Source: an uncultured bacterium (GTDB lineage Bacteria; Patescibacteriota; Minisyncoccia; Minisyncoccales; UBA10102). Taken from it: 64,000 nt of DNA. Position 1 is the first letter of the stretch, and each line of letters opens with the position of its first letter. The translations under genes were made by a program, and so were the position numbers. This document shows, piece after piece, positions 87 through 42,918 of the stretch. A model generated the notes under the pieces. It made no database searches. It had not been told where the DNA came from and saw only the letters and a program-made list of their open reading frames with translations. Location of the stretch: the NCBI GenBank assembly GCA_913054235.1, contig CAJXJI010000001.1, positions 6,868 through 70,867 of the forward strand, in the 5' to 3' direction.

Positions 87-96
87 TCTTTTCAAT

Positions 97-462
97 GTCC
101 AAGAAGACAGTAAGCCGAATTCTGTTCCCAGTTACACTGGGCGGTAATCATCTATCTGTTCTTTTAATTACTTAAAAGAATCAAGCGAACTACCTTGCCA
201 AAAGTTCCACATGAAACGCAGATCTTCTGGTTTGCTCTTGCACTCAGGCAGGATTTAGCCGTTTCACCCCTCATGTTGCCATGAGGACTCATCCACTGTT
301 GGATGCCGGTTTTCTTTCAAATCCCGGCGTCTCTGCTCGCACCTCTCAGATTACTCTGGCAGGGCATTACCCTGACCCGCAGAACTCAATGAGTGAGTGT
401 TCGGACTTTCCTCCAGGTATTCAACATATTGAATACCCAGCGATTACCTCGTCTTCTTGGAC
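97..462 (-). ncRNA. rnpB: RNase P RNA (bacterial type, rnpB)
   Basis: Minus strand carries GGAGGAAAGUCCG (P4 5' strand) and ACAGAAUUCGGCUUAC (P4 3' strand). GGGUGAAACGG (J11/12-like) and GUGCGAGCAGAGA (GUGCAACAGAGA-like) are also present. The P3 hairpin is ggtattcaa-tatg-ttgaatacc. Terminal helix P1 is GUCCAAGAAGAC pairing with GUCUUCUUGGAC; the ends are approximate. Confidence 0.85.
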
Positions 463-474
463 CCTTATATTATG

Positions 475-1446
475 CTAGTATCCAGCACTTTTGTCAACTA
501 GGTTGGGGAGCTTCTCTCCTTTTATATACGCTTTAAGATTTTCGCAAAAAAGATCAATGGCCCGCTCCATATATCTTTCTGAAATGCCAGAATGATGAGG
601 AGTGATAATAACATTTTCCATTTCCCACAATGGGCTCTCTTTTGGTAGTGGTTCTTCTTCTGTGACATCCAACGCTGCTCCTGCAATACGCTGTTCTTTT
701 AAGGCAGAAATCAGTGCCTGCTCATCTACCACTCCCCCTCTCCCAATATTCACCAATACGCCATGAGACTGCATTGCTTCCAGACGTTCTTTATTCATAA
801 AATGATGAGTATCTTTAGTGTGGGGCAATGTAAGTACTACAAAGTCTGCTCTCCCAAGAAATTCCATTAACTGTTCTTCTGTTCCTAACTCTTTAACAAA
901 GTTTGGCTTTTCTTTCCCTTGAGTATCAAGAGCAATAACATGTGCATTAAAACAAGAAGCAAGACGCGCTGTTTCACTCCCAATCTTCCCAAGTCCAATC
1001 ACCAATACAGTCTTATCCTTAAGTTCTGTTAACTCATTGATTCTTTCCCATGTCTTTTCTTGCTGATTGCGAAAACTTTGATAAAACTGTCTGGTAAAAA
1101 TCAATAAAAACCCAATAATATGCTCTGCAATAGGAGTTGCATGAATACCAGAAGAATTACTTGCAAGGACAGGAGAAGCAACTAGCTCTGGAGTCAAGAC
1201 TCTATCCATGCCAGCAGAAAAAGAATGAACCCATCTGAGCTTTCCCACAAGAGATAAATCAGGAATTGCTCGCGGGATACCAGCTACAATCTCTGCGTCT
1301 TTAAGATGTTCTTCAATGTCCTTACTATTGGAAGCTGAAACAACTTTAAGCTCAATGTCTGAACTTAAACTTAAAATCTGCTCTTTTTGCTCCTTTGTTA
1401 TGCTTCGCAAAGGACGATCTTGTGGTTCAATGAGAAGAATTTTCAT
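475..1446 (-). CDS. D-isomer-specific 2-hydroxyacid dehydrogenase (NAD-binding; PGDH/glyoxylate reductase-like)
   Basis: Rossmann motif GLGKIGSETARLA; catalytic region like NIGRGGVVD...ITPHHSG typical of the D-2-hydroxyacid DH family. Confidence 0.8.
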   Translation of the reverse strand: MKILLIEPQDRPLRSITKEQKEQILSLSSDIELKVVSASNSKDIEEHLKDAEIVAGIPRAIPDLSLVGKLRWVHSFSAGMDRVLTPELVASPVLASNSSGIHATPIAEHIIGFLLIFTRQFYQSFRNQQEKTWERINELTELKDKTVLVIGLGKIGSETARLASCFNAHVIALDTQGKEKPNFVKELGTEEQLMEFLGRADFVVLTLPHTKDTHHFMNKERLEAMQSHGVLVNIGRGGVVDEQALISALKEQRIAGAALDVTEEEPLPKESPLWEMENVIITPHHSGISERYMERAIDLFCENLKAYIKGEKLPNLVDKSAGY

Positions 1447-6152: not shown

Positions 6153-7454
6153 TTACTCCGTGGGAAGCTCAGGGGGAGCTTCTCCTTTCTTTGGACCAAC
6201 TCTCAGAACTGCAGCAGAAGGAGTAGAAATTCTGCCGGGAAAGTGAAAAATAGTAGCCAATTCCTCAACATTCAATACAAATGTGCCTCCTGGGCGCGGG
6301 AAATAAGGAGGGAGACGCAGAATATAGTTTCGAAACAAGCGTCTTTTTTTTACAAACGCTCTTCTCTTGTCCGTAAACCAGGTAAAAATAGTGTACATCT
6401 TAGTTAAGGTTGGTTTCAAAGGACGAAAGTTATTATAGGTTGCAGTTCCAAATTGAGTGAACCAAGTCATGGCAAGAGCCTTTGCTGGGCTAAAATAATT
6501 TTCTCTCTTTGCAATATACATAAATCTACAATGAGCTCCAAAGGAATACTTACTGATTTTCTCTTCAATCGCAGAAACAATATCTCGCTCTCCGGGAGTT
6601 AATCTCATTTCAGGAGGAATAATCTCTTGTGGAGCTTGTTCTTTGTTGCCATTTTGTTTAACTCCCATGGCAACATGTGTCCCCACAGCTTTTATATCCC
6701 CAAGTAATCCTGGATTTTTAAGAGGAGGAGGACGTTTTACAATCTCAGCTACAATCTCTCTTCCCTCTTGGACCATTGTACTCTCATTTGGACTGGTATG
6801 TAAAATTGGAGTTAAAACAAATTGAATCCAAAGGTTTTCCCCTTTTCCAATTCGAGACAAGCCCTCAATCAAAAGAGCCATGGGATTAATTCTCATTTCT
6901 TCTTTATCAGTAACGTTTGGCTCAAAAAACTTGCTATACGTCTTTATGGGATACGGGCTGGGACGTTCTAAAATATAGTTCGTACCCCATAAATCCCACT
7001 CTTTATTAGGAATGTCTTGTGGGATAAGTTTCGTGTAATCCTCCACCACCACAAATTCTGCTGTAGGATAATGAGAATAAACGGCAGATTCCACCAGTTT
7101 TTGCGCTCCTTCTGGAATACGAAAATAGAAATGGATATTTCCTTCTGTAGAAACTATTTCCAAGGAAAAGGAAAGTTGGAATTTTCCATCAAGCCATGCT
7201 TCTCTTTGGTTTGGAGGATCATGCATTTGCCATAGACCAATAAACACGTCCTCCATTGCCTTAAACGGCCGAGGAGCATCCTCTGGCATTTTAATCTCCA
7301 GGAGAATATAACGTTGCTGTGCAGAAAAAATTTCCTTGCGCCACCAAACCCACAAAAACACCACTGGTTTCCATAAAAGAAATGGGAGAAACAGCCACCA
7401 CCATGTAATAGCTACTTGCCAGATGAATCCCAAAAAGAGGAGAAGTTCTTGCAT
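6153..7454 (-). CDS. Hypothetical membrane protein, N-terminal Trp-rich TM segments
   Basis: 433-aa ORF, N-terminus WQVAITWWWLFLPFLLWKPVVFLWVWW; no recognisable catalytic motif; packed with neighbours. Confidence 0.5.
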   Translation of the reverse strand: MQELLLFLGFIWQVAITWWWLFLPFLLWKPVVFLWVWWRKEIFSAQQRYILLEIKMPEDAPRPFKAMEDVFIGLWQMHDPPNQREAWLDGKFQLSFSLEIVSTEGNIHFYFRIPEGAQKLVESAVYSHYPTAEFVVVEDYTKLIPQDIPNKEWDLWGTNYILERPSPYPIKTYSKFFEPNVTDKEEMRINPMALLIEGLSRIGKGENLWIQFVLTPILHTSPNESTMVQEGREIVAEIVKRPPPLKNPGLLGDIKAVGTHVAMGVKQNGNKEQAPQEIIPPEMRLTPGERDIVSAIEEKISKYSFGAHCRFMYIAKRENYFSPAKALAMTWFTQFGTATYNNFRPLKPTLTKMYTIFTWFTDKRRAFVKKRRLFRNYILRLPPYFPRPGGTFVLNVEELATIFHFPGRISTPSAAVLRVGPKKGEAPPELPTE

Positions 7455-22052: not shown

Positions 22053-25000
22053 TTAGTAACTGTAGGTAGGTCCTGTTGCGGCAGAACCGTAGCTATCGGT
22101 TTCTGTCTTATAGGTAGCAGCACCGGAAGTGTTTAGTGGGGTGTAATCCCAGCTAAATCCTTCAACCTGTGCTGTTGTAACCTGGTTTGGTCCTTTGGCT
22201 CCAGGAATTCTGATTCCAAAGCTTGCCGATACTGAAGTTACGAGACCTGAACTATCTTCTGCTCGCTTCACGTTTGACGTGTCAGCTTTCACTACCAATG
22301 TCATTGTTTGGCCTGCAGTTACTGTCTGCTCGGCCAAAGCCGTTACAGCAGAACGTGCATCAAATACAACAGTACCAGAACCTCTAGTAAGGTTGTAGAT
22401 GTCAGCCGGCTCAGTGCCAGCCACAGCAGCTGCGTTGGTGGAAATTCCAGATATTGCTACCTGGGTTACAGTAACTGTGTTTGCTCCAATAGAAGCAACT
22501 GTTGCTGTACCACTATCTGCAGCAGTACCCGCTATAACGTAGAGCTGATCACCAACCTGATACTTTGAAGCATCTGCAACGTCATAAGTCAAACCACTAT
22601 TTGCAGTGGCGCCATCAACGTCAGATACCGTGTACACAATGTAGGTGTCATCAGTTGCTATGGTGCCATCTACAACATCGGCTGCCATAACCATAACTGT
22701 AGAACTCGTAATACTGGCCACTGTGGTTGTTCCAGAGTTCGCTTCTGTACTTAAATCAATATAAAGGACAGAGTCACCAACTAGGAATCCAGCTGTACCA
22801 GCAACAGTAGCAGTAGCTGTACTACCTGAAGTAGCTGTAGTTCTGGTGTTTGTTGCAAGACCTGATACTTCAGCGATTATAGTATCGCCATTAAACAACT
22901 TAAAGTCTTTTACATTCCAGTCTGCGCTACTACCAAGCTTCTCTACTACCAAGCTTCTAAACGTCATGTCTCGGCTTCCAGAAGCTTTAATGCTAATGGT
23001 TCCAACAACCTGATCAAGGGCAGGTGATGCAACTCCTCCTGTTGGAAGAGAGTCACTTCCTGTGACAGTAAGCACTGGTTGCACCTCTTCATACCTCATG
23101 GTGTTACCCGTAAGGCTATTGGTGTTCGTGATCTTAGTAACATGGTCTCCAGCTGCTGCGATTGCAATTGAACCAGCAGGGCTAAAGGCAAGGCCTGAAA
23201 TTGCACTACCTGAAGCCACAGCCGTGGTCACGATTGCAAATCCTGCCTCGTTATCATCAGAGTCATATACATACACCAGATCACCTACGGCGTAAGCTAC
23301 CCCAGCGTTTGCATTTCCAAGAATGGCCTCTACCTTAGAAAGCTTGGTGATAATATCACCTGCTGCCCAAGAAGTGTCAGTTGCTTCTCCTTCAAGATCC
23401 AGGTCAGCTGATGCCAAGTTCACTGAATCATCATCCGTAGTTACCAATGCAAATCCTGGAGCTGTGGTTGTTCCAGCATCAGCTGTTACAGTCCAGTATA
23501 CAACGTCACCCACGTCTCCAGAGTAAGCATCCGTACCTGCGGTATACGCAGTTCCAGATGAAAGGGACTCTTGCGTGGTCAAACCAGAGCCTGATCCAAT
23601 TACATCAGCAGCGCTAAATCCGAGAACTCCAAGGTTTGATGCGGTCAACGTTCCAACTACCGTAGTATCCACAACTGCGGTTATTACTCGGGAACCATAT
23701 GAAGGAACAATGATCTCATTTCCTGAGCCAAAGGTAAACGTTGCAGTTCCTGCTGTGAGAGCTGTTGAAGGGTCGCTTGAAAGACCCGTGCCAAGCAACT
23801 TCACATTTGCAATGTTTCCTGCTCCATTCAATGTTCGCAGTACAAGCCTTTCTACCTTCATGTCTTCTACTGTTGCAGACAACTTAATTCTTGCCATTTC
23901 AATTCCGGTTAAACCAGGGGTCAAGAATCGGCTGGAAGCAGCTCCGGTAGAATCCATAGCAACTGTTACAGTTCCTGATTCAACAATAGTCAAAGTTCTT
24001 GCTGTCACAGTCGCTGAAGGACCCGTAATGGATGATCCAGATGTTGCACCAACTCCCGTAACATCAGCTGCATTCAGAGAAGCAATGTATGTGTCATTGG
24101 TACCTCCATCAGAAGCTGCGGTGTTTGCGCTTGCATACACATCAACCTGCACTGTCGTGGAAGCTAGAATATTCAGCTCTCCTGAGACAGTAAAGGTGTT
24201 GTTGGTAGCAGTAGGGGAGGCAATAGTGCTTCCCATCTGTGCTCCAGTGCTTGTCAGCTTTACCTTCATGTTGGTCAAACCAGTTGCAACCGCAACATCA
24301 CCTGCAGTAAGATCTACTACGATAGTAGAGATGTTTACTCCTTCAGAAGAGTTAGTTTGCATCAAGAAAGAACCAATAAGAAGCTCTGACTGACCCTCAA
24401 TCACAGTAGCAGCACCTATAGAAGCATTGTTCACAACCGTCAAGGTTGCGGTAGATGCTGTTAAGGTGTTAGTTGAGATATGAGCGTTTGCGTCAGACGC
24501 AGTTCCATAGGTGTTGGATGTCATTCTCTTATAGTACACTCGTCCTAGTCCACCAATGATGGTTTCTGCATCATCGATGCCGGTTCCAGCGTCAACCACA
24601 ACTTTTACCTTAAGTACGGTTCCAGCTGGAATAGTGTAGTACGTAGAAAATGTTACTTGGTCACCACTGTCATTTGCAGCGTTATCATCATCAAACAAAT
24701 CATCTGCTCCAGCTGACTGACTGTGAAGAGTTTGTCCTGCGTCAGTCATGAACTTAATTGTTCCAGAAAAGTCTCCATCGTCAGAGCTTCCACCAAGCTC
24801 ATAGTCAGCTCGCTGAATCTGAATATCTTCACCCTGAGCCTGAAGTTCCCAGACACCAACAACAATGTTGGCCTGTCCGATACCAAAGGTTCCTGAAGGT
24901 GAGCTACCTGACTTGTTCACGGTCAAAGTTCCCTGACTCACAGTCAAGAGGTTGTATCCTGAATTTCCAGTGGTGATGTCACCAATAGGAATTGCGGAGT

Positions 25001-26402
25001 CAACTGTTCCTGCGGCTGTTGGCAAAATACCAAGGCCAGTAGATACTCCGACTACCTGAAGATCGTAATCGTTTTGAATGATAACCTGTCCAGTTCTGTT
25101 AGAACCAGAGATTACATCAACTCGAACGGTTAAATCTTTTGTTGTTCCTTTCAAAATCGTGTAAGGCTCGGAGAGAATAAACTCAACCGACTTGCTGGTT
25201 GCTCCAGCAACCGTTGCCAACACAACTCCGTTAGGATCAACCAAATCAAAGTTTACGAGATCAGCATCAGCTGCAGTTCCATTCTGGAACAATGTCAATC
25301 TGTTAATCTTCGCGTCTTCGTTTCCAGTTGTCTCAACAAAGCGGAACTTGCTCAAAACATAATCAGTTCGTCCAATATCCACACTTACTGAGGTTGAGGT
25401 CTGTGAGACCACATCTATAGTTACTGCTCCCAAAATGCTTGAGGTGGCAGTAAGAGTCTGAAGGTTTCCATTTATAGGAAGACCTGTTGGGTCACCGTTT
25501 ATGCCAGTTACGTTAAATCCAATAGTTCCTGCAGTTGCTGCAGAGTTTACGTGCACTTGCACATTAAACGTGGTAGAGCCTCCTGCTGAGGCCACAATAG
25601 GATCTCCAGTAAATGGAATAGTTACTTTGCCATCAGCTAAAGTAACAACACTTCCGTGTCGATTACCGTTTGCGTCAACGATTAATACTCCGTCAACATT
25701 CGTGTCAATGGAAAGACCAAATCTCTCCACAGTAACAGATGTGACAGAAGCTCCACTTGCTCCTCCATTTACTTGCACCTGAACTACGGTGTTGTAAGCA
25801 GAAGATGCTCCCAATGTTCCAGCTGCTGGGTTGTTAAATCCAACTTGTACGCTGGAAGGACCGGTTGTTGGAGCTGGGGTTGGAGTACCAGGCGTTGGGC
25901 TTGGCGTTGGTGATGCTACAAACAATGCATTGATCTTTGCTCTTGAGGAAGAACCAAAGAATCCGGTTCCAGCACTCAATCCCAAAGGCTCCAATACATT
26001 TGCAGCATACTTGTCCTGAAATTTAATAACTCCGCTTCGGGTAATTGGCCCAAAGAAAGTTGTTTCATTTCCAGGAGAGCCAGCTCCAGAGTCTGCCAAT
26101 TTCGTGGCAGGGTCGGAGTTCAAGAACATCTGGAGGTACATTACGTCCTGTCCCTTAGATCCTACCGTAAGACTTGTGTCCCAGGTAAAACCAGCAGGAA
26201 TGCCAGAAACGCTTACCGTTCCAGTGTCTCCTCCGTCTATGTCTGTTAATTGCGCTTGCAATGTTGCCAATTGCGCCATAAGAGCGTCAATCTGTACCTG
26301 CAATTCAGCTGCGGTTAACGCAGAAGCTGGTGCAGGAACAGCTACGATCCCAAGCATAGCAACAACAGTTACAACGGCAAATATTTTCTTAAATCTACTC
26401 AT
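22053..26402 (-). CDS. Giant (1449 aa) secreted Thr/Ser/Gly/Ala/Val-rich surface protein: N-terminal coiled-coil plus PG-binding-like anchor, then tandem beta-rich domains (putative S-layer/adhesin)
   Basis: Signal peptide MSRFKKIFAVVTVVAMLGIVAVPAPASA. Coiled coil LQVQIDALMAQLATLQAQL. PG_binding_1-like domain GQDVMYLQMFLNSD...FFGPITRSGVIKFQDKYAANVLEP...GFFGSSSRAKIN. Recurring modules of the form ...R(F/L)..V.K..R..F..(L/V)...G......V.F.L.D.NG.V.A.V.G. The coding GC is much higher than the genome background. Confidence 0.75.
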   Translation of the reverse strand: MSRFKKIFAVVTVVAMLGIVAVPAPASALTAAELQVQIDALMAQLATLQAQLTDIDGGDTGTVSVSGIPAGFTWDTSLTVGSKGQDVMYLQMFLNSDPATKLADSGAGSPGNETTFFGPITRSGVIKFQDKYAANVLEPLGLSAGTGFFGSSSRAKINALFVASPTPSPTPGTPTPAPTTGPSSVQVGFNNPAAGTLGASSAYNTVVQVQVNGGASGASVTSVTVERFGLSIDTNVDGVLIVDANGNRHGSVVTLADGKVTIPFTGDPIVASAGGSTTFNVQVHVNSAATAGTIGFNVTGINGDPTGLPINGNLQTLTATSSILGAVTIDVVSQTSTSVSVDIGRTDYVLSKFRFVETTGNEDAKINRLTLFQNGTAADADLVNFDLVDPNGVVLATVAGATSKSVEFILSEPYTILKGTTKDLTVRVDVISGSNRTGQVIIQNDYDLQVVGVSTGLGILPTAAGTVDSAIPIGDITTGNSGYNLLTVSQGTLTVNKSGSSPSGTFGIGQANIVVGVWELQAQGEDIQIQRADYELGGSSDDGDFSGTIKFMTDAGQTLHSQSAGADDLFDDDNAANDSGDQVTFSTYYTIPAGTVLKVKVVVDAGTGIDDAETIIGGLGRVYYKRMTSNTYGTASDANAHISTNTLTASTATLTVVNNASIGAATVIEGQSELLIGSFLMQTNSSEGVNISTIVVDLTAGDVAVATGLTNMKVKLTSTGAQMGSTIASPTATNNTFTVSGELNILASTTVQVDVYASANTAASDGGTNDTYIASLNAADVTGVGATSGSSITGPSATVTARTLTIVESGTVTVAMDSTGAASSRFLTPGLTGIEMARIKLSATVEDMKVERLVLRTLNGAGNIANVKLLGTGLSSDPSTALTAGTATFTFGSGNEIIVPSYGSRVITAVVDTTVVGTLTASNLGVLGFSAADVIGSGSGLTTQESLSSGTAYTAGTDAYSGDVGDVVYWTVTADAGTTTAPGFALVTTDDDSVNLASADLDLEGEATDTSWAAGDIITKLSKVEAILGNANAGVAYAVGDLVYVYDSDDNEAGFAIVTTAVASGSAISGLAFSPAGSIAIAAAGDHVTKITNTNSLTGNTMRYEEVQPVLTVTGSDSLPTGGVASPALDQVVGTISIKASGSRDMTFRSLVVEKLGSSADWNVKDFKLFNGDTIIAEVSGLATNTRTTATSGSTATATVAGTAGFLVGDSVLYIDLSTEANSGTTTVASITSSTVMVMAADVVDGTIATDDTYIVYTVSDVDGATANSGLTYDVADASKYQVGDQLYVIAGTAADSGTATVASIGANTVTVTQVAISGISTNAAAVAGTEPADIYNLTRGSGTVVFDARSAVTALAEQTVTAGQTMTLVVKADTSNVKRAEDSSGLVTSVSASFGIRIPGAKGPNQVTTAQVEGFSWDYTPLNTSGAATYKTETDSYGSAATGPTYSY

Positions 26403-26510: not shown

Positions 26511-27254
26511 TTAATTGGAAATCATCCAAATATTCTCTAATGCTTTCTGGTAGTTTGCCGCCTGATATGCACCAATAGCTTCTTTGAGCAATACTTCCTG
26601 CTCACTGGTCAATGATCTTTTAAGCAAATCATTTAACTCAGATTCAACTAGAATCTTGGTTGCGCTTTTCAATCCTGATGTTTCTTCTTCTCCGATAGTA
26701 GCACCCAAAATCTGCTCTATTTGAGCTTTACCCTTTTGCAATTGTACTAGTTCTCGAGAAGCCTGTAAAGCCTTTTCAGGTTCGTTTTCCACAAGGGCTA
26801 AAAGACCTCGTGAAACCTCTGCTACGCTTAGGTTAAATTCCTCTGTTGCAGAAGCAAGATTCTTTACCTTGTTCCCCTCAACTACCCTTCTTAAGTCTGC
26901 CAAGCGTCTTTCAGCTACCTTAAAGGTAGCTGAAGAGTCACTTCCTGTGGTTGCCTTTTCAATAATAGAGCGAACCGAGTATAGGGGGTCTCCAGGAAGA
27001 CTGTTTTGTGAAACCTTATACCCAATCCCTCCAAATACCACAAATGCCAAGACTGCAAAGATATAGGCTGGTCTTTCAAGGTATCGGACATAGGATACAA
27101 GATGTCCTATCTTGTAAATAAGGCTAGGATTTTGTCCTATCTCCTTATTAGCCTCATTTGGAATACTGGTCTTAGCAAAAAGCACCCAACTGTTTCTAGG
27201 TTCAATTTCCTTTAAGCGAGATAATTTTGTTATGAGATCCTTTTCGTAGGCCAT
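26511..27254 (-). CDS. Single-pass membrane anti-sigma-factor-like protein (DUF5667-like LPGDPLY motif)
   Basis: Cytoplasmic N-terminus, one TM helix (AYIFAVLAFVVFGGIGYKV), then SLPGDPLYSVRSIIEK and a helical extracytoplasmic domain. Sits immediately downstream of the ECF sigma gene. Confidence 0.6.
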   Translation of the reverse strand: MAYEKDLITKLSRLKEIEPRNSWVLFAKTSIPNEANKEIGQNPSLIYKIGHLVSYVRYLERPAYIFAVLAFVVFGGIGYKVSQNSLPGDPLYSVRSIIEKATTGSDSSATFKVAERRLADLRRVVEGNKVKNLASATEEFNLSVAEVSRGLLALVENEPEKALQASRELVQLQKGKAQIEQILGATIGEEETSGLKSATKILVESELNDLLKRSLTSEQEVLLKEAIGAYQAANYQKALENIWMISN

Positions 27255-27311
27255 TATAGTTATGACGTAAAATAAGGGAAAGTATTACACTATCGGCTAT
27301 CCTAATTTGCT

Positions 27312-27815
27312 CTAAACATCCACCTTGCCCTTTAGGGCTTGAATGGCTCTATGAACCCCTACTCTCACGTTCTCCTCAGTCTTGCCGGTAATTTGAGCTA
27401 TTTCAGGCACAGTGAGCTCATCTACATATCGCCAGATAATAAGGTCCTGATAGTCTCCTTGGAGCTTTGCTATAGCCTCTTTTATCCTATCCATTTCCAA
27501 GCTTACTTCGCCCTGTTCTCTTGTTCTTTCCTGAATATCTTCAATTTCAATAGTGGTTTTCTCAATAGATACCACGGTAATCTTTTTGCTCCTATAATGG
27601 TCTGCTATGACATTCCTTGCTATTTGGTAGACAAAGGCCTGAGGATTCTCAATTACAGGATTGTTCTTTTGAATATGCCTGTATAAGCGCAAAAACACCT
27701 CAGACGACAAATCCTCTGCCGTCTCAACTAAACTAACCTTCAGGTATATAAACCGATAGATCTTGTTGACATATTGATCGTATACCTGATTAAAATATTG
27801 ATCTATTTCTTCCAT
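27312..27815 (-). CDS. ECF-type RNA polymerase sigma factor (sigma-70 regions 2 and 4)
   Basis: Region 2 FIYLKVSLVETAEDLSSEVFLRLYRH...QAFVYQIARNVIADHYR; region 4 HTH LTVPEIAQITGKTEENVRVGVHRAIQALK; 167 aa. Confidence 0.85.
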   Translation of the reverse strand: MEEIDQYFNQVYDQYVNKIYRFIYLKVSLVETAEDLSSEVFLRLYRHIQKNNPVIENPQAFVYQIARNVIADHYRSKKITVVSIEKTTIEIEDIQERTREQGEVSLEMDRIKEAIAKLQGDYQDLIIWRYVDELTVPEIAQITGKTEENVRVGVHRAIQALKGKVDV

Positions 27816-27901: not shown

Positions 27902-28528
27902 TTAACGAATCTGATAAAAAATCTCATTCCACTCTCCTTGTCTGATAATAAAGCTACGCTGGAGTAAGTCATCTAAATCTCTTCGCAAAGTTCTTTTCGT
28001 AACTTCAGGAAGTACCTTTTGTAATTCCCAAACCTGTACTTTTGGCTTGTTTCGCATAAGCTCTAAAATCCTAGATTGTCTAAAGGAAAGCTTCCCTTTA
28101 GATACTGACGTATTTTCCTTGCTCTTTATAACAGGAACTGTCTGTCTTGTGCTTATATCTTGCTTCAGAACAACTCGCTCTTGATTTACTACTATTGATT
28201 TTTCGTGAATCTTACGTAAAAACTCTCCCACCCTGTTATACTCCCGCTCCAGCATTATAAAGTTTTCTGGGTTTATTTCAGCTGTGCGTTTTGCATAGTT
28301 TAAATAAGCTACAAGTTTACCAGTCTCCCGAATTGCTCTTGCGGTCACCGTAGGCCTTTGCCCTGACATAGCGGGGTTTTCTTGCACAAGCAAAATAAGG
28401 CTTACCAAAAGCTTATTTGAAGAATCTTGCACCTGAGCTCTTAAAGGATCCTCTCGGGGCAAGATATTAACTACTTTATGAGTAGCTACTATGAGACGAA
28501 CAAAAAAGTCAGCATTCATTATACGCAT
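27902..28528 (-). CDS. Putative transcriptional regulator with C-terminal DeoR-like winged-helix HTH
   Basis: C-terminal RQSRILELMRNKPKVQVWELQKVLPEVTKRTLRRDLDDLLQRSFIIRQ matches the HTH_DeoR pattern; the N-terminal 120 aa are unassigned. Confidence 0.5.
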   Translation of the reverse strand: MRIMNADFFVRLIVATHKVVNILPREDPLRAQVQDSSNKLLVSLILLVQENPAMSGQRPTVTARAIRETGKLVAYLNYAKRTAEINPENFIMLEREYNRVGEFLRKIHEKSIVVNQERVVLKQDISTRQTVPVIKSKENTSVSKGKLSFRQSRILELMRNKPKVQVWELQKVLPEVTKRTLRRDLDDLLQRSFIIRQGEWNEIFYQIR

Positions 28529-28570
28529 TTTACTATACCAAAGACCTATCCCTCGGTCAAAGACCGTTCA

Positions 28571-28598
28571 TTGACAAAACATAAATATAATATATACT
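28571..28598 (+). promoter_or_regulatory. Sigma70-like promoter TTGACA-16-TATACT for the first islet gene
   Basis: Seen directly; followed by RBS GGGAGG and the ATG at 28690. Confidence 0.4.
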
Positions 28599-28689
28599 AT
28601 AACAAGGACATCGCTTGGATAAACCAAGCAAATTACCACGGTCTCTATGGGTAGTGTGGGGAAGAGGCTGATGTAGGGAGGCTCACATA

Positions 28690-28914
28690 ATGATAAGAAT
28701 GACAAAATTGATGCAGCGTGTAGCAAAGGAACAACAGCAACCATTGGAGCGGTTGCTACCAGAAATGATCAATGACATCGGGTTTTCAGCTACTGCAAAG
28801 GAACTGGACATCAATAAGGCAACCCTAGGGTACTGGCTCTTAAAGCTCGGCATACGTGTACAGCGAGTAGCTCTTGCTCCAGGGGAAACCCTGGAAATAA
28901 AGAGGCTATCTTAG
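28690..28914 (+). CDS. Small (74 aa) helix-turn-helix protein
   Basis: IGFSATAKELDINKATLGYWLLKLGI is HTH-like; it has its own promoter, RBS and downstream hairpin plus T-run. Confidence 0.5.
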   Translation: MIRMTKLMQRVAKEQQQPLERLLPEMINDIGFSATAKELDINKATLGYWLLKLGIRVQRVALAPGETLEIKRLS

Positions 28915-28945
28915 GTCTTTAATCTAGGGGTTTTTCCCCAAAATA

Positions 28946-28979
28946 GGCGCTAGTATCCCCTGCTGGCGCCCTTTTTATT
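28946..28979 (+). terminator. Hairpin plus CTTTTTATT terminator after the HTH gene
   Basis: GGCGC...GCGCC stem with a 15-nt loop, then CTTTTTATT. Confidence 0.35.
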
Positions 28980-29046
28980 ACCAACAAAACCTTATTTACC
29001 TTGACATACCATATATCTTGGAGTATACCCTTAAGGATACTATACT

Positions 29047-29265
29047 GTGGAGAAGATAGTGGTAAAACAGAGAGATAAGCGGAGTAAAAATCCCAAAAAG
29101 AAGAGCCCATTTCGCAAAAACAGAAAAGTACGTATTAATGGAGGCCGCTTTGATGGTGCTATAGCAACAATCATGTTTGCTGGTAATAGCGAAGCTACAG
29201 TCAGAATACCAGGACGCGAAAAACCTGAGTCATTTTCCCTCGATCAACTACGCTTGGCCTCCTAA
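29047..29265 (+). CDS. Small (72 aa) basic protein with KOW-like motif
   Basis: N-terminus KQRDKRSKNPKKKSPFRKNRK is highly basic; KVRINGGRFDGAIATIMFAGNSEATVRIPG resembles a KOW/L24-like beta barrel; followed by a strong terminator. Confidence 0.45.
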   Translation: MEKIVVKQRDKRSKNPKKKSPFRKNRKVRINGGRFDGAIATIMFAGNSEATVRIPGREKPESFSLDQLRLAS

Positions 29266-29294
29266 GGAGAAGCAAATCTCCAGAAAAAGCAAAA

Positions 29295-29328
29295 GCCCTT
29301 GGCATATTGCCAAGAGCTTTTTTATTTT
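29295..29328 (+). terminator. Rho-independent terminator
   Basis: GCCCUUGGCA-uau-UGCCAAGAGC (one mismatch), followed by TTTTTTATTTT. Confidence 0.6.
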
Positions 29329-29426
29329 CTATCCTTGGTTCGGCCAAGTTATTAACACCTGCCTGCGCAGGCAGGCCTTAGCAAGATTAAGTTTCCTTTC
29401 CATTCAAAACCAATATTACAACACCA

Positions 29427-29454
29427 TTGACAAATCCAAAATAAGGTGTATAAT
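29427..29454 (+). promoter_or_regulatory. Near-consensus sigma70 promoter TTGACA-16-TATAAT
   Basis: ttgacaaatccaaaataaggtgTATAAT seen directly; drives the downstream 49-aa ORF or sRNA unit. Confidence 0.5.
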
Positions 29455-29495
29455 ATCACTTAAGTACCAAGAGAGGGGTATCTTATGGAGGCACA

Positions 29496-29645
29496 ATGAG
29501 CCACAATATACGCGCAACATGTATCTTTCATTATGGGGATTCAAGCCCCACCACAAAAGAACTAGCAGTACTTGCATCCAATGGATGGGATATACTTCTA
29601 GACGGCGATGCACAGACGTGCACACTCGTCAAAAATGATTTCTAG
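29496..29645 (+). CDS. 49-aa peptide MSHNIRATCIFHYGDSSPTTKELAVLASNGWDILLDGDAQTCTLVKNDF (alternatively a ~280-nt sRNA)
   Basis: Consensus promoter upstream, RBS GAGAGGGG, a 4-codon uORF (MEAQ) whose stop overlaps the main ATG (AATGA), and a strong terminator downstream. No homology recognised. Confidence 0.35.
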   Translation: MSHNIRATCIFHYGDSSPTTKELAVLASNGWDILLDGDAQTCTLVKNDF

Positions 29646-29707
29646 CTAGCAAAATCCAGCAAGCAATATTCTTTGTTTTAAAAATCTTCTCTCTTGGGCA
29701 AACAAAA

Positions 29708-29742
29708 GCCCCCCGGCACAAAACACCGGGGGCTCTTTTTTA
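29708..29742 (+). terminator. Strong rho-independent terminator
   Basis: GCCCCCCGG-cacaaaaca-CCGGGGGCU followed by CTTTTTTAT. Confidence 0.7.
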
Positions 29743-29828
29743 TCTAATGCTCCCTTAACTAAGTTGAGCATTTTTAGTCTAGCCAAGTTATCTATACAGA
29801 TTACTATGCGTATCAATATCAATAAAAA

Positions 29829-30548
29829 TCAAAGTCCAAGAAAAGTCCTCAGCACCGAAGAAGGAATAACAAAGATGTTTCTTTGAAGGTCAGCATCTGC
29901 TAAACCCGCAACTCTTCCTTCCACGTCAAACAAAGGAGCACCATCAACATTTTCATTCTCCACGATTGAAGTGGATAAAGAATCTTCTTCTACTTTCTTT
30001 ACAATCCCCATATTCACAATTAGAGTTCCTTCACCCTCCTCAATAATTTTTGCTAGTAATACCACTCGCTCTCCAAGCTTAACTCCCCCATTACCAACAA
30101 AACCAGCTGTTTTAAGTCCCATATCTTCTATTTTTAAAAGCACAAGATTATTTTTTACATCACGTTTTAAAACTTGGGCCTCCAATGGATCTTGTCCTTC
30201 AGGATATATCATAATCTTAAAGCCAGTTGGAACCAGGGAAGATAAAGTAACAATTAATCCGTCTGAAGTATATACAAGGCCAGAACCTGCTCGCGTGCCA
30301 GAACTCTTTAGCGCAACCACAGTATTTTTTACTTCTTGAATTGTCCTCTCTATTGCCTCATTCTCACGAACAAAAATCTGCTCTACGGGAGCTATTATTT
30401 GAGTTCTTGCATTCCAATCTTTTAAAAATTGCCAATCTGCAAAAGCAGGGTTTGCTGCCAAAGAAGGTAGCAAAAAAGCTTGGGACCAGAGGCCCCCAGC
30501 AGCTCCTGCTAAAAACAGAAGTAAAAACAAAAGAATTCGTCTTGTCAT
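29829..30548 (-). CDS. Catalytically inactive trypsin-fold HtrA/DegP-like pseudoprotease with signal/TM anchor
   Basis: Collinear with the neighbouring HtrA. GSGLVYTSDGLIVTLSSLV aligns with GSGFIVSPDGLIITNKHVV (His to Ser). NNLVLLKIED aligns with QDLAVLKIDQ (Asp to Asn). NVDGAPLFD aligns with GNSGGPLLN (the nucleophile Ser falls on Asp). No PDZ domain. Confidence 0.6.
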   Translation of the reverse strand: MTRRILLFLLLFLAGAAGGLWSQAFLLPSLAANPAFADWQFLKDWNARTQIIAPVEQIFVRENEAIERTIQEVKNTVVALKSSGTRAGSGLVYTSDGLIVTLSSLVPTGFKIMIYPEGQDPLEAQVLKRDVKNNLVLLKIEDMGLKTAGFVGNGGVKLGERVVLLAKIIEEGEGTLIVNMGIVKKVEEDSLSTSIVENENVDGAPLFDVEGRVAGLADADLQRNIFVIPSSVLRTFLGL

Positions 30549-41971: not shown

Positions 41972-42420
41972 ATAAGATATTTCTTTTCTTTTTGAGTCAT
42001 TATCTTTTCATTTTTTGAAGTTTCATGGTCATATCCTAAAAGATGCAAAAGACCATGTACAAACATCCAAGAAATAGCCCTCTTAAAGGATATCTTATAT
42101 TCTAGCGCATCTTTGGCAATCACAGAAGGGCACAGAACAATCTCTCCTAAAGCTTCTTTGGCACCAGGAAAGGCAAGCACGTTAGTTGCCTTATCCTTAT
42201 CTCTATATGCTTTATTAAGCTTACGCATTTTTTGAGGACTTACTATAACTACTGAGACATCCATGCTCCTTGGTTTTTCCTTTTTAAGAACACGTTCTGC
42301 CAAAAGCTTGAGTGCGCTAACAGGTACCTTCTTTTTTGTGAGATTTTGTATTTCAATCATTATATTCATCTTATTGTAATACCTTTTTGACAAGAAAGGA
42401 ATTAATCTAAGTATTGACAA
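41968..42420 (-). CDS. ybeY: rRNA maturation endoribonuclease YbeY
   Basis: Zinc-binding HGLLHLLGYDHE motif. Confidence 0.88.
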   Translation of the reverse strand: MSILRLIPFLSKRYYNKMNIMIEIQNLTKKKVPVSALKLLAERVLKKEKPRSMDVSVVIVSPQKMRKLNKAYRDKDKATNVLAFPGAKEALGEIVLCPSVIAKDALEYKISFKRAISWMFVHGLLHLLGYDHETSKNEKIMTQKEKKYLI

Positions 42421-42442
42421 AATTATTAAATTATGTTATATT
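42414..42442 (+). promoter_or_regulatory. Sigma70-like promoter TTGACA-17-TATATT
   Basis: Seen directly upstream of the TTG-initiated secreted-protein gene (RBS GGAG 7 nt before TTG at 42493). Confidence 0.4.
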
Positions 42443-42492
42443 AATAATATTCCCAATTCTCATAGGGAAAAAATATAGCTTGGAGACATACC

Positions 42493-42843
42493 TTGAATAA
42501 AATTACTAAAGTACTAGCTGGTTTACTTTTGGTGGCTGCGCTGCTAATGAGCGCAATTCCCTTATTCTCCCCCAATATTACAGACCAACGCCTCAATCTC
42601 CTTCTTGAGAAGGGCTTCCCAGTCTGGTTATACGAGGACGACGGAATCAATCAAGGAGGGAGAATCCCGGTCCCCGCAAGAATCAAATTCCTATTCGTGA
42701 ACGATCAAAGCGGGACTTCCGCAGAAGACAATCGTCTCACGTTCGTAATTTCAAGAGAAGAAGAGTCTAAGGGTCTATTCAGAGATGGAACACGCATCAT
42801 CGTGCATGTCTCTGACGAGAACATCCGGCCCCCAAGACAATGA
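42493..42843 (+). CDS. Small secreted hypothetical protein (116 aa, signal peptide, TTG start)
   Basis: Signal peptide KVLAGLLLVAALLMSAIPLF; the body is GC-rich (about 50%) compared with neighbours; it has its own promoter and terminator. Confidence 0.55.
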   Translation: MNKITKVLAGLLLVAALLMSAIPLFSPNITDQRLNLLLEKGFPVWLYEDDGINQGGRIPVPARIKFLFVNDQSGTSAEDNRLTFVISREEESKGLFRDGTRIIVHVSDENIRPPRQ

Positions 42844-42871
42844 TCTCAATCAATCTCGCTACAACCAAAAA

Positions 42872-42903
42872 CCCCGACAGACTCCAATCTGTTGGGGTTT
42901 GTC
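42872..42903 (+). terminator. Rho-independent terminator
   Basis: CCCCGACAG-acuccaau-CUGUUGGGG then TTTGTCATTT. Confidence 0.55.
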
Positions 42904-42918
42904 ATTTCTATACTACAA

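Follow-up and report, generated by a model that had tools for sequence, protein, structure and literature searches.

A probable small-gene turnover site in marine Patescibacteria that carries a helix-turn-helix protein of a Chloroflexota family

Introduction

Helix-turn-helix (HTH) modules of small size are known from Fis and NtrC (the C-terminal HTH_8 type), from region 4 of sigma-70, and from lambda Cro and CII. KOW-type domains are known from NusG, Spt5, and ribosomal proteins. NusG is defined by the NGN domain, which binds RNA polymerase. These proteins, together with the UpxY antiterminators, are the closest described counterparts of the locus analyzed here.

The locus is an islet of ~1.3 kb in a stretch of 64,000 nucleotides (the window) from an uncultured member of the Patescibacteria (CPR). 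It comprises three plus-strand mini-units, each with its own sigma-70-like predicted promoter and its own hairpin/T-run terminator. The corresponding open reading frames (ORFs), all on the plus strand, are P1 (28690-28914; 74 aa), P2 (29047-29265; GTG start, 72 aa), and P3 (29496-29645; 49 aa), and each was found at the position and with the length given in the original prediction. That prediction had proposed a degraded phage or mobile-element regulatory module or a toxin-antitoxin-like locus. Our analysis indicates that the islet probably consists of three independent monocistronic units at a small-gene turnover site rather than of one module.

Results

The AF2 model of P1 (pLDDT 95.6) bore out the assignment of this protein to the HTH class, with helices at residues 6-15, 19-30, 32-38, and 43-52, helices 3 and 4 forming the HTH, and an extended C-terminal tail. 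Like HTH_8 and sigma-70 region 4, P1 is a small all-helical module in which the HTH is C-terminal in the helical part, and its ATLxYWLLKLGI pattern is reminiscent of the end of HTH_8. The best Foldseek matches were Fis, the DNA-binding domain of NtrC4, and sigma region 4, none of them significant (all E > 1; for Fis, E of about 2 to 5 and TM of about 0.43). The HTH_8 profile (PF02954) matched 8 of 49 P1 relatives weakly (best E = 1.3e-4), and P1 itself failed the profile threshold. Unlike P1, Fis and NtrC lack a conserved, extended tail of 20 residues (RVALAPGETLEIKR), whereas the N-terminal beta-hairpin arm of Fis is not predicted in P1. P1 also resembles lambda Cro and CII in its size and in the presence, after the HTH, of a C-terminal segment with a possible role in dimerization. 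Its best PDB profile match, confined to the HTH, was Cro (2a63; E = 0.024, below significance), but Cro has an alpha+beta fold, whereas four helices are predicted for P1, which has no phage context. Overall, sequence, profile, and Foldseek comparisons of P1 with the PDB returned generic, nonsignificant HTH similarity only. P1 would bind DNA via helices 3 and 4, with KATLGYWLLK as the recognition helix, probably as a dimer, and would act as a transcription regulator or a nucleoid-associated protein.

P2, described in the original prediction as a basic KOW-like protein, has a basic disordered N-terminal tail followed by a predicted five-stranded KOW-type beta-barrel (residues ~25-70), and both the Foldseek results and weak profile matches agreed with that description. 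Nearly all of the best 50 Foldseek matches were KOW-type domains of Spt5, NusG, or ribosomal proteins (probability 1.0; E, 0.03-0.1), and superposition of the single-sequence model (pLDDT 61) on the Spt5 KOW and NusG C-terminal domains gave an rmsd of ~2 Å. The matches to the NusG/UpxY profiles involved the C-terminal part of these profiles only (positions 97-150 of 164 and 102-141 of 172) and were far below the cutoffs of 100 and 135.7 bits. The Pfam KOW motif was matched solely by the P2 orthologue of the relative L056 (E = 0.0017, under the gathering score). Members of the P2 cluster carry the JGI label "NusG," but P2 falls outside the NusG/Spt5 family, since it has 72 residues and no N-terminal NGN domain. 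P2 further differs from NusG and UpxY by its basic disordered tail, its low identity between sister species, and its confinement to one CPR lineage; among 5.8 billion proteins, its only homologues were near-identical. The positional orthologue in the sister species L052 is also 72 residues long and displays 29% identity with P2 (alignment z = 7.3). Conservation of the frame and length at this level of identity makes the coding reading of P2 secure. P2 is, according to its structural model, a lineage-specific, fast-evolving stand-alone KOW-fold protein, which would bind nucleic acid or a partner of the NusG C-terminal domain, such as ribosomal protein S10 or Rho.

The islet is embedded in a long minus-strand run, as originally described: all ORFs of at least 120 codons located between 475 and about 46,349, other than those nested within a longer ORF of the opposite strand, are on the minus strand. 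Another small plus-strand unit is present in the window (42,414-42,905). The flanks of the islet are identical in 16 or more independent assemblies from a single marine Patescibacteria species (>98% DNA identity), indicating that the islet is not an assembly chimera. The 16 conspecific contigs are too close to each other for tests of coding capacity or structure and were used only to establish a table of single nucleotide polymorphisms (SNPs). The GC content of the islet, thought to be visibly elevated, is in fact ordinary (0.415 versus 0.403 for the window), since 24% of the 1.3-kb windows equal or exceed this value. GC content was rejected as a sign of foreign origin, the difference being nonsignificant over the whole islet; the GC3 of P1 (0.48) is the sole compositional outlier. 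Neither an integrase nor direct or inverted repeats flanking the islet were detected, in agreement with the original prediction.

Promoters, transcription starts, and terminators of the islet were predicted from consensus sequences only. The P1 promoter (28571..28598, plus strand; TTGACA-16-TATACT) matches the consensus at 11 of 12 positions and is 93.5% identical to that of the P1 orthologue of L052. The P2 promoter (29001..29029, plus strand; 10 of 12 positions) combines TTGACA (29001-29006), a 17-bp spacer, and TATACC (29024-29029). It is located 17 nt upstream from the start codon, implying a leader of ~10 nt, and the same geometry is found in L052 (TTGACA-17-TATATC-17-ATG). The P3 promoter (29427..29454, plus strand; TTGACA-16-TATAAT) is a perfect consensus (12 of 12). 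Thus, of the motif TTGACA-16/17-TATAxT that had been attributed to all three units, the -35 element and spacing stand, but the -10 hexamer of P2 ends in C and is not strictly TATAxT; at this site, a SNP (position 29028) results in TATATC in 11 of 15 conspecific contigs. Matches at 11 or more of the 12 positions occur only four times on both strands of the 64 kb. Two of them are in the islet, and one of the four drives the gene for the RNase P RNA with the same type of consensus. Between 27500 and 31000, promoter-like sites numbered 14, versus 7.8 ± 2.8 expected, and terminator-like sites numbered 11, versus 3.1 ± 2.0 expected.

A hairpin followed by a T-run was confirmed downstream from each of the three ORFs. 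The P1 terminator (28946..28978, plus strand) consists of a hairpin (28946-28970) with a 10-bp stem including 6 GC pairs, followed by CTTTTTATT. The P2 terminator (29291..29328, plus strand), with a hairpin at 29291-29321 / 29298-29314 followed by a T-run, is 90% conserved in L052. The third terminator (29710..29742) is bidirectional and would serve both P3 on the plus strand and the convergent trypsin-like/ClpB operon on the minus strand. Its hairpin, CCCCCGG..CCGGGGG (29710-29732), contains 7 GC pairs and is bordered by T-runs on both strands, the plus-strand tail being CTCTTTTTTA. The position of the P1 -10 element suggests a 5' leader of ~85 nt (28605..28689, plus strand), in which the segment GGTCTCT..GGGTAGTGTGGGGA.GAG is common to L052 (87% conserved); its predicted stability is not unusual (z = -1.2). 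An 18-bp perfect palindrome, CCTGCCTGCGCAGGCAGG (29358..29375), lies between the P2 and P3 units; it is present in the conspecific contigs and occurs once in the window (chance expectation, 0.03). This palindrome might act as an operator or form a hairpin; as a second copy is lacking, no operator set can be defined.

The divergent neighbor of the islet (27902..28528, minus strand) is the first gene of an ECF-sigma operon, preceded by a promoter-like site (TTGACC-17-TATAGT; 28560-28532). It encodes a protein of 208 residues with a C-terminal DeoR/WYL-type winged HTH (Pfam HTH_DeoR, E = 1.4e-5; PADLOC WYL, E = 2.2e-5). The actual length is probably 205 residues, since the first ATG is lost (M1I) in L008 and L011, indicating that M4 is the likely start. 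On the convergent side, the ClpB 90% cluster and a trypsin homologue with 82% identity carried the name Patescibacteria. Related loci were gathered through homologues of the trypsin protein; a Y1 (IS200-like) transposase gene directly follows the trypsin gene in one of them (L054).

In these relatives, the islet stays beside the gene for the 208-residue regulator, whose orthologues adjoin it in L052 (59% identity) and in L056 (44% over the N terminus), but the units are swapped, which identifies the site as a spot of small-gene turnover. P1 and P2 are syntenic in L052, with conserved predicted promoters. L056 has P2 and, in the ~12-kb locus viewed, no P1, which could lie elsewhere in that genome, as in those of L050/51 and L054/55, viewed over the same length. 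P3 has no counterpart in L052 or L056. A common family of P3 with ORFs of L052 (65 aa) and L056 (77 aa) was considered and rejected, as no significant similarity was found.

P3 is species-specific and is either a small RNA or the mRNA of a 49-residue peptide, an ambiguity already expressed in the original prediction. The transcription unit (29461..29745, plus strand; ~285 nt) contains the P3 ORF and a 4-codon upstream ORF (29485-29499, plus strand) that overlaps the start of the P3 ORF via ATGA. It appears quite possible, if slightly short of probable, that the islet includes a noncoding unit, P3 in particular being a structured small RNA of ~285 nt in which the ORF is fortuitous. The predicted fold is more stable than expected (z = -3.5 when the terminator is left out and -4.2 when it is included); the P2 mRNA served as a control (z = -1.2). 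The 5' and 3' ends are joined by a 12-bp closing helix between 29467-29478 and 29686-29697, and this helix and an inner helix sequester both Shine-Dalgarno-like sequences in the predicted fold. The ORF was called as a gene in none of 16 assemblies, L052 and L056 have no homologue of the protein, and the promoter fits the consensus perfectly, as in the case of the RNase P RNA gene. Against a structured RNA, no Rfam family matches P3, GGAGG is present 4 nt ahead of the ATG, and the sequences in which covariation could be seen come from one species. The secure coding readings of P1 and P2 argue against extending the noncoding interpretation to these units. The Rfam search over the islet returned nothing at the gathering score and, at E ≤ 5, no match on the P3 unit or the P1 leader; the sole plus-strand match at that threshold was a weak suhB (E = 0.59) at the P1 terminator.

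The family to which P1 belongs exceeds 1,264 clusters, nearly all of which are 74 residues long and show 73 to 78% identity. All names within the family are "hypothetical" and all are from Chloroflexota, Dehalococcoidia, or SAR202, the majority of the homologues bearing no taxon label. Alignments of P1 with more than 100 listed members were gap-free over residues 1-74 (E of about 1e-28; 73-78% identity). P1 retains 23 invariant columns of the family, including M8, V11, L19, E20, P24, E25, G31, A36, A44, T45, Y48, and W49, of which G31, A36, Y48, and W49 are kept even in comparison to members with 30 to 60% identity. About 270 clusters at 50% identity matched the family at E ≤ 0.001, the best 150 listed being nearly all small proteins, and the divergent named members (49-59% identity) are also from Chloroflexota. 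Conservation of the protein in loci with GC contents of between 36% and 57% makes the coding reading of P1 secure. In Chloroflexota, the gene is monocistronic, located between the PALP and FmdA genes or beside SAR202-type catabolic genes, and is preceded by phased A/T tracts or A/T-rich repeats, a TTGACA promoter, and a 50- to 85-nt leader. P1 shares with this family (e.g., FI711_01045, OXI91_12600, and VX895_07435) the stand-alone gene, the consensus predicted TTGACA promoter, and a long leader (≥50 nt). It differs by its Patescibacteria host, its genomic neighbors, the absence of the upstream A/T-tract repeats, and alteration or polymorphism at positions that are near-invariant in Chloroflexota (F32, N42, and K43N). 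No Pfam family matched P1 at E ≤ 1, nor did any NCBIfam or PHROG family, and a literature search found nothing on the P1 family. Despite its very high conservation in Chloroflexota, the family is covered by neither a Pfam nor an NCBIfam model, and its function is undescribed.

Sequence comparisons indicate that the CPR copy of P1 was very probably acquired horizontally from a donor of the Chloroflexota (SAR202/Dehalococcoidia) type. In a neighbor-joining tree of 241 members, based on only 74 columns, the CPR sequences are found inside the family, at a depth of 17 nodes. The P1 protein of L052 is 84% identical to P0059, which has a SAR202-type context, versus 72% to P1 of the window. This nesting and the closer relationship of the L052 copy to a SAR202-type protein indicate that P1 was acquired horizontally and then maintained by purifying selection (dN/dS of ~0.10 between the two CPR species, with dS saturated). 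Since the host of the window belongs to the Patescibacteria, outside Chloroflexota, membership in this family itself implies transfer and is no argument against the homology of P1. Within the species, 6 of 7 polymorphisms in P1 and 4 of 5 in P2 are nonsynonymous, which would also fit relaxed constraint.

Alternatively, P1 would be a relic of an ancestor common to Patescibacteria and Chloroflexota, retained in few CPR lineages. The two phyla are reportedly sister groups in one rooted phylogeny, and strong constraint could hold identity high over long periods. Such a descent nevertheless appears quite unlikely, as CPR copies are closer to SAR202-type copies (78-84% identity) than those of the two congeneric CPR species, whose ClpB proteins are 89% identical, are to each other (72%). 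Furthermore, named Chloroflexota members diverge to 49 to 59%, so that the CPR copies fall inside the family, and P1 is missing from the ~12-kb L056 locus. Finally, the 21 GTDB loci with a member of the family were all from Dehalococcoidia, Chloroflexota, or SAR202 and none from Patescibacteria, in a scan based on exact 8-mers from the query that divergent CPR copies would escape. The horizontal acquisition very probably predates the split of at least two CPR species, and P1 now has a native-style ATTGACAAAAC predicted promoter and remains under purifying selection.

The foreign origin of P1, the turnover of unit content between related species, the small opposite-strand genes with strong predicted promoters, the weak likeness of the P1 family profile to lambda Cro/CII HTHs (E, 0.02-0.1), and the transposase gene of L054 could all be taken as traces of a decayed prophage or mobile element that left an HTH repressor and small effectors. 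We regard this as highly unlikely. None of the three proteins had a match in 50,697 phage genomes, IMG/VR, or PHROGs, and P1, the only one compared with PLSDB, had none among its plasmids. The single P3 hit in IMG/VR, a 14-residue patch (TT.EL.VLASNGWD) with an exact 8-mer seed inside an unrelated larger ORF, was rejected as a chance match, and an IMG/VR profile scan with alignment A1 returned no match. The absence of an integrase and of flanking direct or inverted repeats, the predicted separate transcription of the units, the synteny of P1 and P2 with conserved predicted promoters in the sister species, and the fixed chromosomal positions of the Chloroflexota homologues among metabolic genes also argue against this origin. 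Of the original interpretation, a partly foreign origin, through the very probable horizontal acquisition of P1, stands, as does a turnover of unit content between related species; the mobile module does not. Least plausible of all is a toxin-antitoxin-like or defense locus (toxin, P2 or P3; antitoxin or regulator, P1), which the succession of an HTH protein and small proteins and the occurrence of the neighboring WYL/DeoR-type HTH in models of defense-associated signaling might evoke, since toxin-antitoxin pairs are cotranscribed while each gene here has its own predicted promoter and terminator, Pfam and PADLOC (like PHROGs and NCBIfam) returned no toxin, antitoxin, or other match above threshold for P1 to P3, P1 homologues are solitary in more than 20 Chloroflexota loci, and L056 has P2 without P1.

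Discussion

The islet neither represents a new type of system nor overturns current understanding. It illustrates the birth and replacement of small genes in a reduced genome, the set being reshuffled between sister species. P1, present in marine Patescibacteria under purifying selection, is a clean example of a gene passed from Chloroflexota to CPR.

Donors of transferred genes have served as clues to the hosts of CPR bacteria, and we know of no host for marine CPR lineages. P1 might be a host-derived regulator, the highly conserved and, on this reading, highly expressed DNA-binding protein of SAR202/Dehalococcoidia, captured by presumably episymbiotic marine Patescibacteria and long kept, an idea that we consider unlikely. 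If it were true, SAR202-type bacteria would be the host or a close partner of this CPR lineage and, in the boldest version, the CPR cell would mimic or interfere with the own regulator of its host.

The analysis also exposed the P1 family itself, with more than 1,200 clusters, 73 to 84% identity across Chloroflexota, and stand-alone, promoter-rich genes. Global regulators and nucleoid proteins typically show conservation of this degree. Independently of any relation to a host, Chloroflexota might possess in the P1 family a global regulator or nucleoid protein that has so far escaped description.

Architecture and lineage of the islet

Scans for ORFs, promoters, and hairpins bore out the original prediction of three plus-strand mini-units, each with its own promoter and terminator, within a minus-strand run. 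Between positions 475 and 46,349, all ORFs of at least 120 aa are located on the minus strand, excluding those nested in longer opposite-strand ORFs. On the plus strand, the islet contains ORFs for the helix-turn-helix (HTH) protein P1 (28690-28914; 74 aa), for the KOW-like protein P2 (29047-29265; 72 aa, GTG start codon), and, in a third unit, P3, for a 49-aa peptide (29496-29645). The predicted TTGACA-TATAxT arrangement holds for the promoter-like sites of P1 (28571-28598, TTGACA-16-TATACT) and P3 (29427-29454, TTGACA-16-TATAAT), whereas that of P2 (29001-29029, TTGACA-17-TATACC) is weaker, its −10 hexamer being TATATC in most conspecific contigs. A hairpin and a T-run are found 3′ of each unit; the terminator hairpin of P3 (29710-29732) is bidirectional and common to this unit and the convergent trypsin-like/ClpB operon. 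The higher GC content claimed for the islet is marginal (0.415 versus 0.403 for the window), since 24% of 1.3-kb windows equal or exceed this value.

Only four sites in the whole 64 kb match the σ70 consensus at 11 or more of 12 positions, and two of them are within the islet. Another of the four (469-497, minus strand, near-consensus TTGACA-17-CATAAT) directly precedes the RNase P RNA gene (96-459, minus strand; Rfam RF00010, 129 bits), which suggests that, in this CPR (Patescibacteria) genome, genes with strong expression are marked, and plausibly driven, by consensus σ70 promoters. A second stand-alone plus-strand unit is present within the minus-strand run (42414-42905). It comprises a promoter matching the consensus at 11 of 12 positions (TTGACA-17-TATATT), a 116-aa ORF (42493-42843; TTG start codon) with an N-terminal signal- or transmembrane-like segment and no Pfam match, and a hairpin terminator near 42869-42905, all on the plus strand. 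An 18-bp perfect GC-rich palindrome, CCTGCCTGCGCAGGCAGG (29358-29375), is located past the P2 terminator and ahead of the P3 promoter; it is unique in the window and is broken in two contigs by a G>A polymorphism at 29371.

Proteins of the window belong to 90% clusters labeled "Patescibacteria group bacterium," and a trypsin homologue displaying 82% identity is likewise so labeled. At least 16 contigs, drawn from independent assemblies and all sharing >98% DNA identity, contain the islet between the same flanks, indicating that it is not an assembly chimera. Judging from record names alone (e.g., TARA_... and ICM...MP...), the samples would be marine and in part from the deep ocean.

P1 belongs to a large HTH family of Chloroflexota

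P1 had no match in Pfam, NCBIfam, or PHROG, and other members of its family produced only weak generic HTH matches. The AlphaFold2 model obtained from a 49-sequence alignment (pLDDT of 95.6) comprises four helices (residues 6 to 15, 19 to 30, 32 to 38, and 43 to 52), of which the third and fourth constitute the HTH, followed by a confidently placed, conserved extended tail, RVALAPGETLEIKR. A PDB profile search returned lambda Cro/CII with E values of 0.02 to 0.1, and the nearest shapes identified by Foldseek were Fis, the DNA-binding domain of NtrC4, and sigma region 4, none with an E value better than 1.5. From the fold and the manner of gene expression, we infer that P1 may act by binding DNA, as a regulator or as a nucleoid protein.

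Homology searches retrieved >1,264 clusters, nearly all of exactly 74 aa, 73 to 78% identical to P1, and devoid of any Pfam domain; the named members are all "hypothetical protein" entries of Chloroflexota, Chloroflexi, or SAR202. With an E value of ≤0.001 as the limit, an exhaustive search yielded ~270 clusters (50% identity), of which the 150 best ones listed were nearly all small proteins, and the divergent clusters bearing names (49 to 59% identity) were again from Chloroflexota. Scanning GTDB (one genome per species) with exact 8-mers of the query as seeds, a procedure that divergent copies would escape, revealed 21 loci, all in Dehalococcoidia, Chloroflexota, or SAR202 and none in Patescibacteria. 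The P1 gene of Chloroflexota is monocistronic and is located between divergent PALP and convergent FmdA genes or beside genes for TPP enzymes, CoA-transferases, or short-chain dehydrogenases. It is preceded by a TTGACA promoter and a 50- to 85-nt leader, with A/T-rich, partly 10-bp-phased repeats upstream of the promoter. Tandem A-tract repeats phased at ~10 bp occur just upstream of the −35 hexamer in loci L039 and L041 (~30 to 90 nt upstream of the P1 homologue) and also in L012 to L023 and L032 to L034; examples are three copies of GTTAGAAAAA followed by GTTTGAAAAT and AGTTGAAAAG, and also TTTCTTAAAAAAGTTTAAAA. These phased A-tracts are reminiscent of the UP elements or curved DNA of very strong promoters; alternatively, they resemble binding sites. 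The P1 protein is conserved among loci ranging from 36% to 57% GC, indicating strong selection on the protein itself. P1 represents a large, strongly conserved, and entirely uncharacterized HTH family of Chloroflexota and is the most interesting element of the islet.

Origin of P1 and variation within the species

The trypsin-like protein and ClpB of the sister CPR species (L052 and L053) are 78% and 89% identical, respectively, to those of the window. L052 harbors an orthologue of P1 at the corresponding site, with a promoter displaying 93.5% identity and a partly conserved leader. The P1 proteins of the window and of L052 are 72% identical (dN/dS of ~0.10, with saturated dS), versus 84% identity between L052 P1 and P0059, a family member found in a SAR202-type metabolic gene context. 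The CPR sequences are located 17 nodes deep in a neighbor-joining tree comprising 241 members of the family, within a tight Chloroflexota core group. In a more distant CPR relative (L056, from Tara; 63% identity for trypsin), the islet adjoins the orthologue of the divergent 208-aa gene but contains a different 77-aa ORF in place of P1. Based on the shared site, the identities, the nesting in the tree, and the replacement in L056, we favor a single horizontal transfer of P1 from a Dehalococcoidia/SAR202-type donor to the ancestor of the two species, after which the gene would have been retained in the CPR lineage. Vertical inheritance from an ancestor common to CPR and Chloroflexota is disfavored, since the CPR copies nest inside the family tree and the pattern of identities speaks against it.

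Six conspecific contigs carry five linked nonsynonymous changes (F32L, E38K, D40G, N42S, and K43N) in a 36-nt segment of the P1 HTH (28783-28818, codons 32 to 43), the DNA being otherwise >98% identical. Three of the five match the Chloroflexota consensus. This cluster suggests either allelic recombination or, in the new host, altered constraint or selection on the region of the protein that reads DNA.

P2, a probable free-standing KOW-like protein

Among 5.8 billion proteins, only near-identical homologues of P2 were detected. At the position of P2, L052 contains a 72-aa ORF whose promoter has an identical geometry (TTGACA-17-TATA[C/T]C-17-start) and which shows a low but significant similarity to P2 (29% identity; local score z = 7.3), and L056 contains a 64-aa ORF with a subthreshold Pfam KOW motif. 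These two ORFs argue that P2 is a real gene, and its dN of 0.74 is that of a fast-evolving one. The AlphaFold2 model, obtained from a single sequence (pLDDT of 61), consists of a disordered basic tail (residues 1 to 24) and a five-stranded barrel. Nearly all of the 50 best Foldseek matches of this model were Spt5, NusG, or ribosomal KOW-type domains (probability of 1.0, E values of 0.03 to 0.1, and rmsd of about 2 Å), and NCBIfam returned weak matches to the C-terminal portions of UpxY and NusG. Identification of P2 as a NusG was ruled out because it lacks the NGN domain present in that protein. The model thus points to a free-standing KOW-like protein, which might bind RNA or one of the partners of the C-terminal domain of NusG. 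The folds originally proposed for P1 and P2 were good guesses.

The P3 unit

The P3 promoter is the best in the window. The predicted RNA of ~285 nt has a fold more stable than that of shuffled controls (z = −4.2, or −3.5 when the terminator is left out; z = −1.2 for the P2 mRNA used as a control), in which a 12-bp helix (29467-29478 with 29686-29697) and an inner helix sequester both Shine-Dalgarno-like sequences. The 49-aa ORF was called by no gene caller in any assembly, and the unit had no Rfam match and no counterpart in L052 or L056. The P3 unit may be either an sRNA or the mRNA of the 49-aa ORF. The stop codon of a four-codon upstream ORF (29485-29499, ATG GAG GCA CAA TGA), which is equipped with a good Shine-Dalgarno sequence, AGAGAGGGG, overlaps the start codon of P3 (ATGA), an arrangement that resembles translational coupling. 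In L052, a short, very basic ORF (…MAKTRQGKKIVDVREHKRTLTKGKRIVVKEHRRSTPN) is present at the position of P3, just past the stop codon of the trypsin-like gene (~6731-6841, plus strand).

Probable turnover of small genes at the locus

The order of the units is P1-P2-P3 in the window, 65-aa ORF-P1-P2 in L052, and 77-aa ORF-P2-like in L056. In the three loci, the units are all divergent from the 208-aa DeoR/WYL-HTH gene heading the ECF-sigma operon, and each combines an (A)TTGACA(AAA) promoter with a terminator of its own. The trypsin side is unstable, with two genes (210 and 1,354 aa) separating the islet from the trypsin gene in L056. In two related CPR species, the trypsin-like gene is followed by unrelated ORFs (L050/L051, 6983-10035; 141, 337/377, 261/210, and 59 aa) or by a Y1 (IS200-type) transposase gene (L054/L055, 6794-7468, minus strand), with no islet there; this DNA is a rearrangement breakpoint. 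One relative with broken trypsin-side synteny is represented by a complete 671-kb contig, JADFNM010000001.1 (GCA_022563395.1). Together, the differences in unit content among species and the instability of the trypsin side suggest that the islet is best viewed as a site of turnover of small genes that are transcribed independently, of which P2 would be the oldest recognizable member and P1 an acquired one.

The first ATG annotated for the 208-aa gene (28517-28528, minus strand) is polymorphic (M1I in conspecific contigs L008 and L011) and is separated by just 3 nt from the end of the −10 element upstream. The true start is probably M4 (205 aa), in a nearly leaderless mRNA. The promoters of this gene and of P1 are back to back (28532-28598), with 10 bp between their −35 hexamers. 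The 208-aa gene is followed downstream by genes (22053-26402 and 26511-27815, minus strand) for an ECF sigma factor, for a DUF5667-like protein that may be an anti-sigma factor, and for a 1,449-aa protein without any Pfam domain; the opposite flank of the islet carries the genes for ClpB and for two proteases, one trypsin-like and one HtrA/Do. This gene content places the islet between two envelope or protein-quality-control gene sets.

A phage or mobile-element remnant or a toxin-antitoxin locus, as the original prediction proposed at the system level, is unsupported and disfavored, since searches of PHROG, phage genomes, IMG/VR, and PADLOC with P1 to P3 and of plasmids with P1 were negative, each unit has separate transcription signals, the P1 genes of Chloroflexota are solitary and chromosomal, and, as initially noted, no repeats flank the islet. 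With a single transfer followed by retention as the favored origin, P1 would show that an uncharacterized HTH family of Chloroflexota has reached a marine CPR genome by horizontal transfer.
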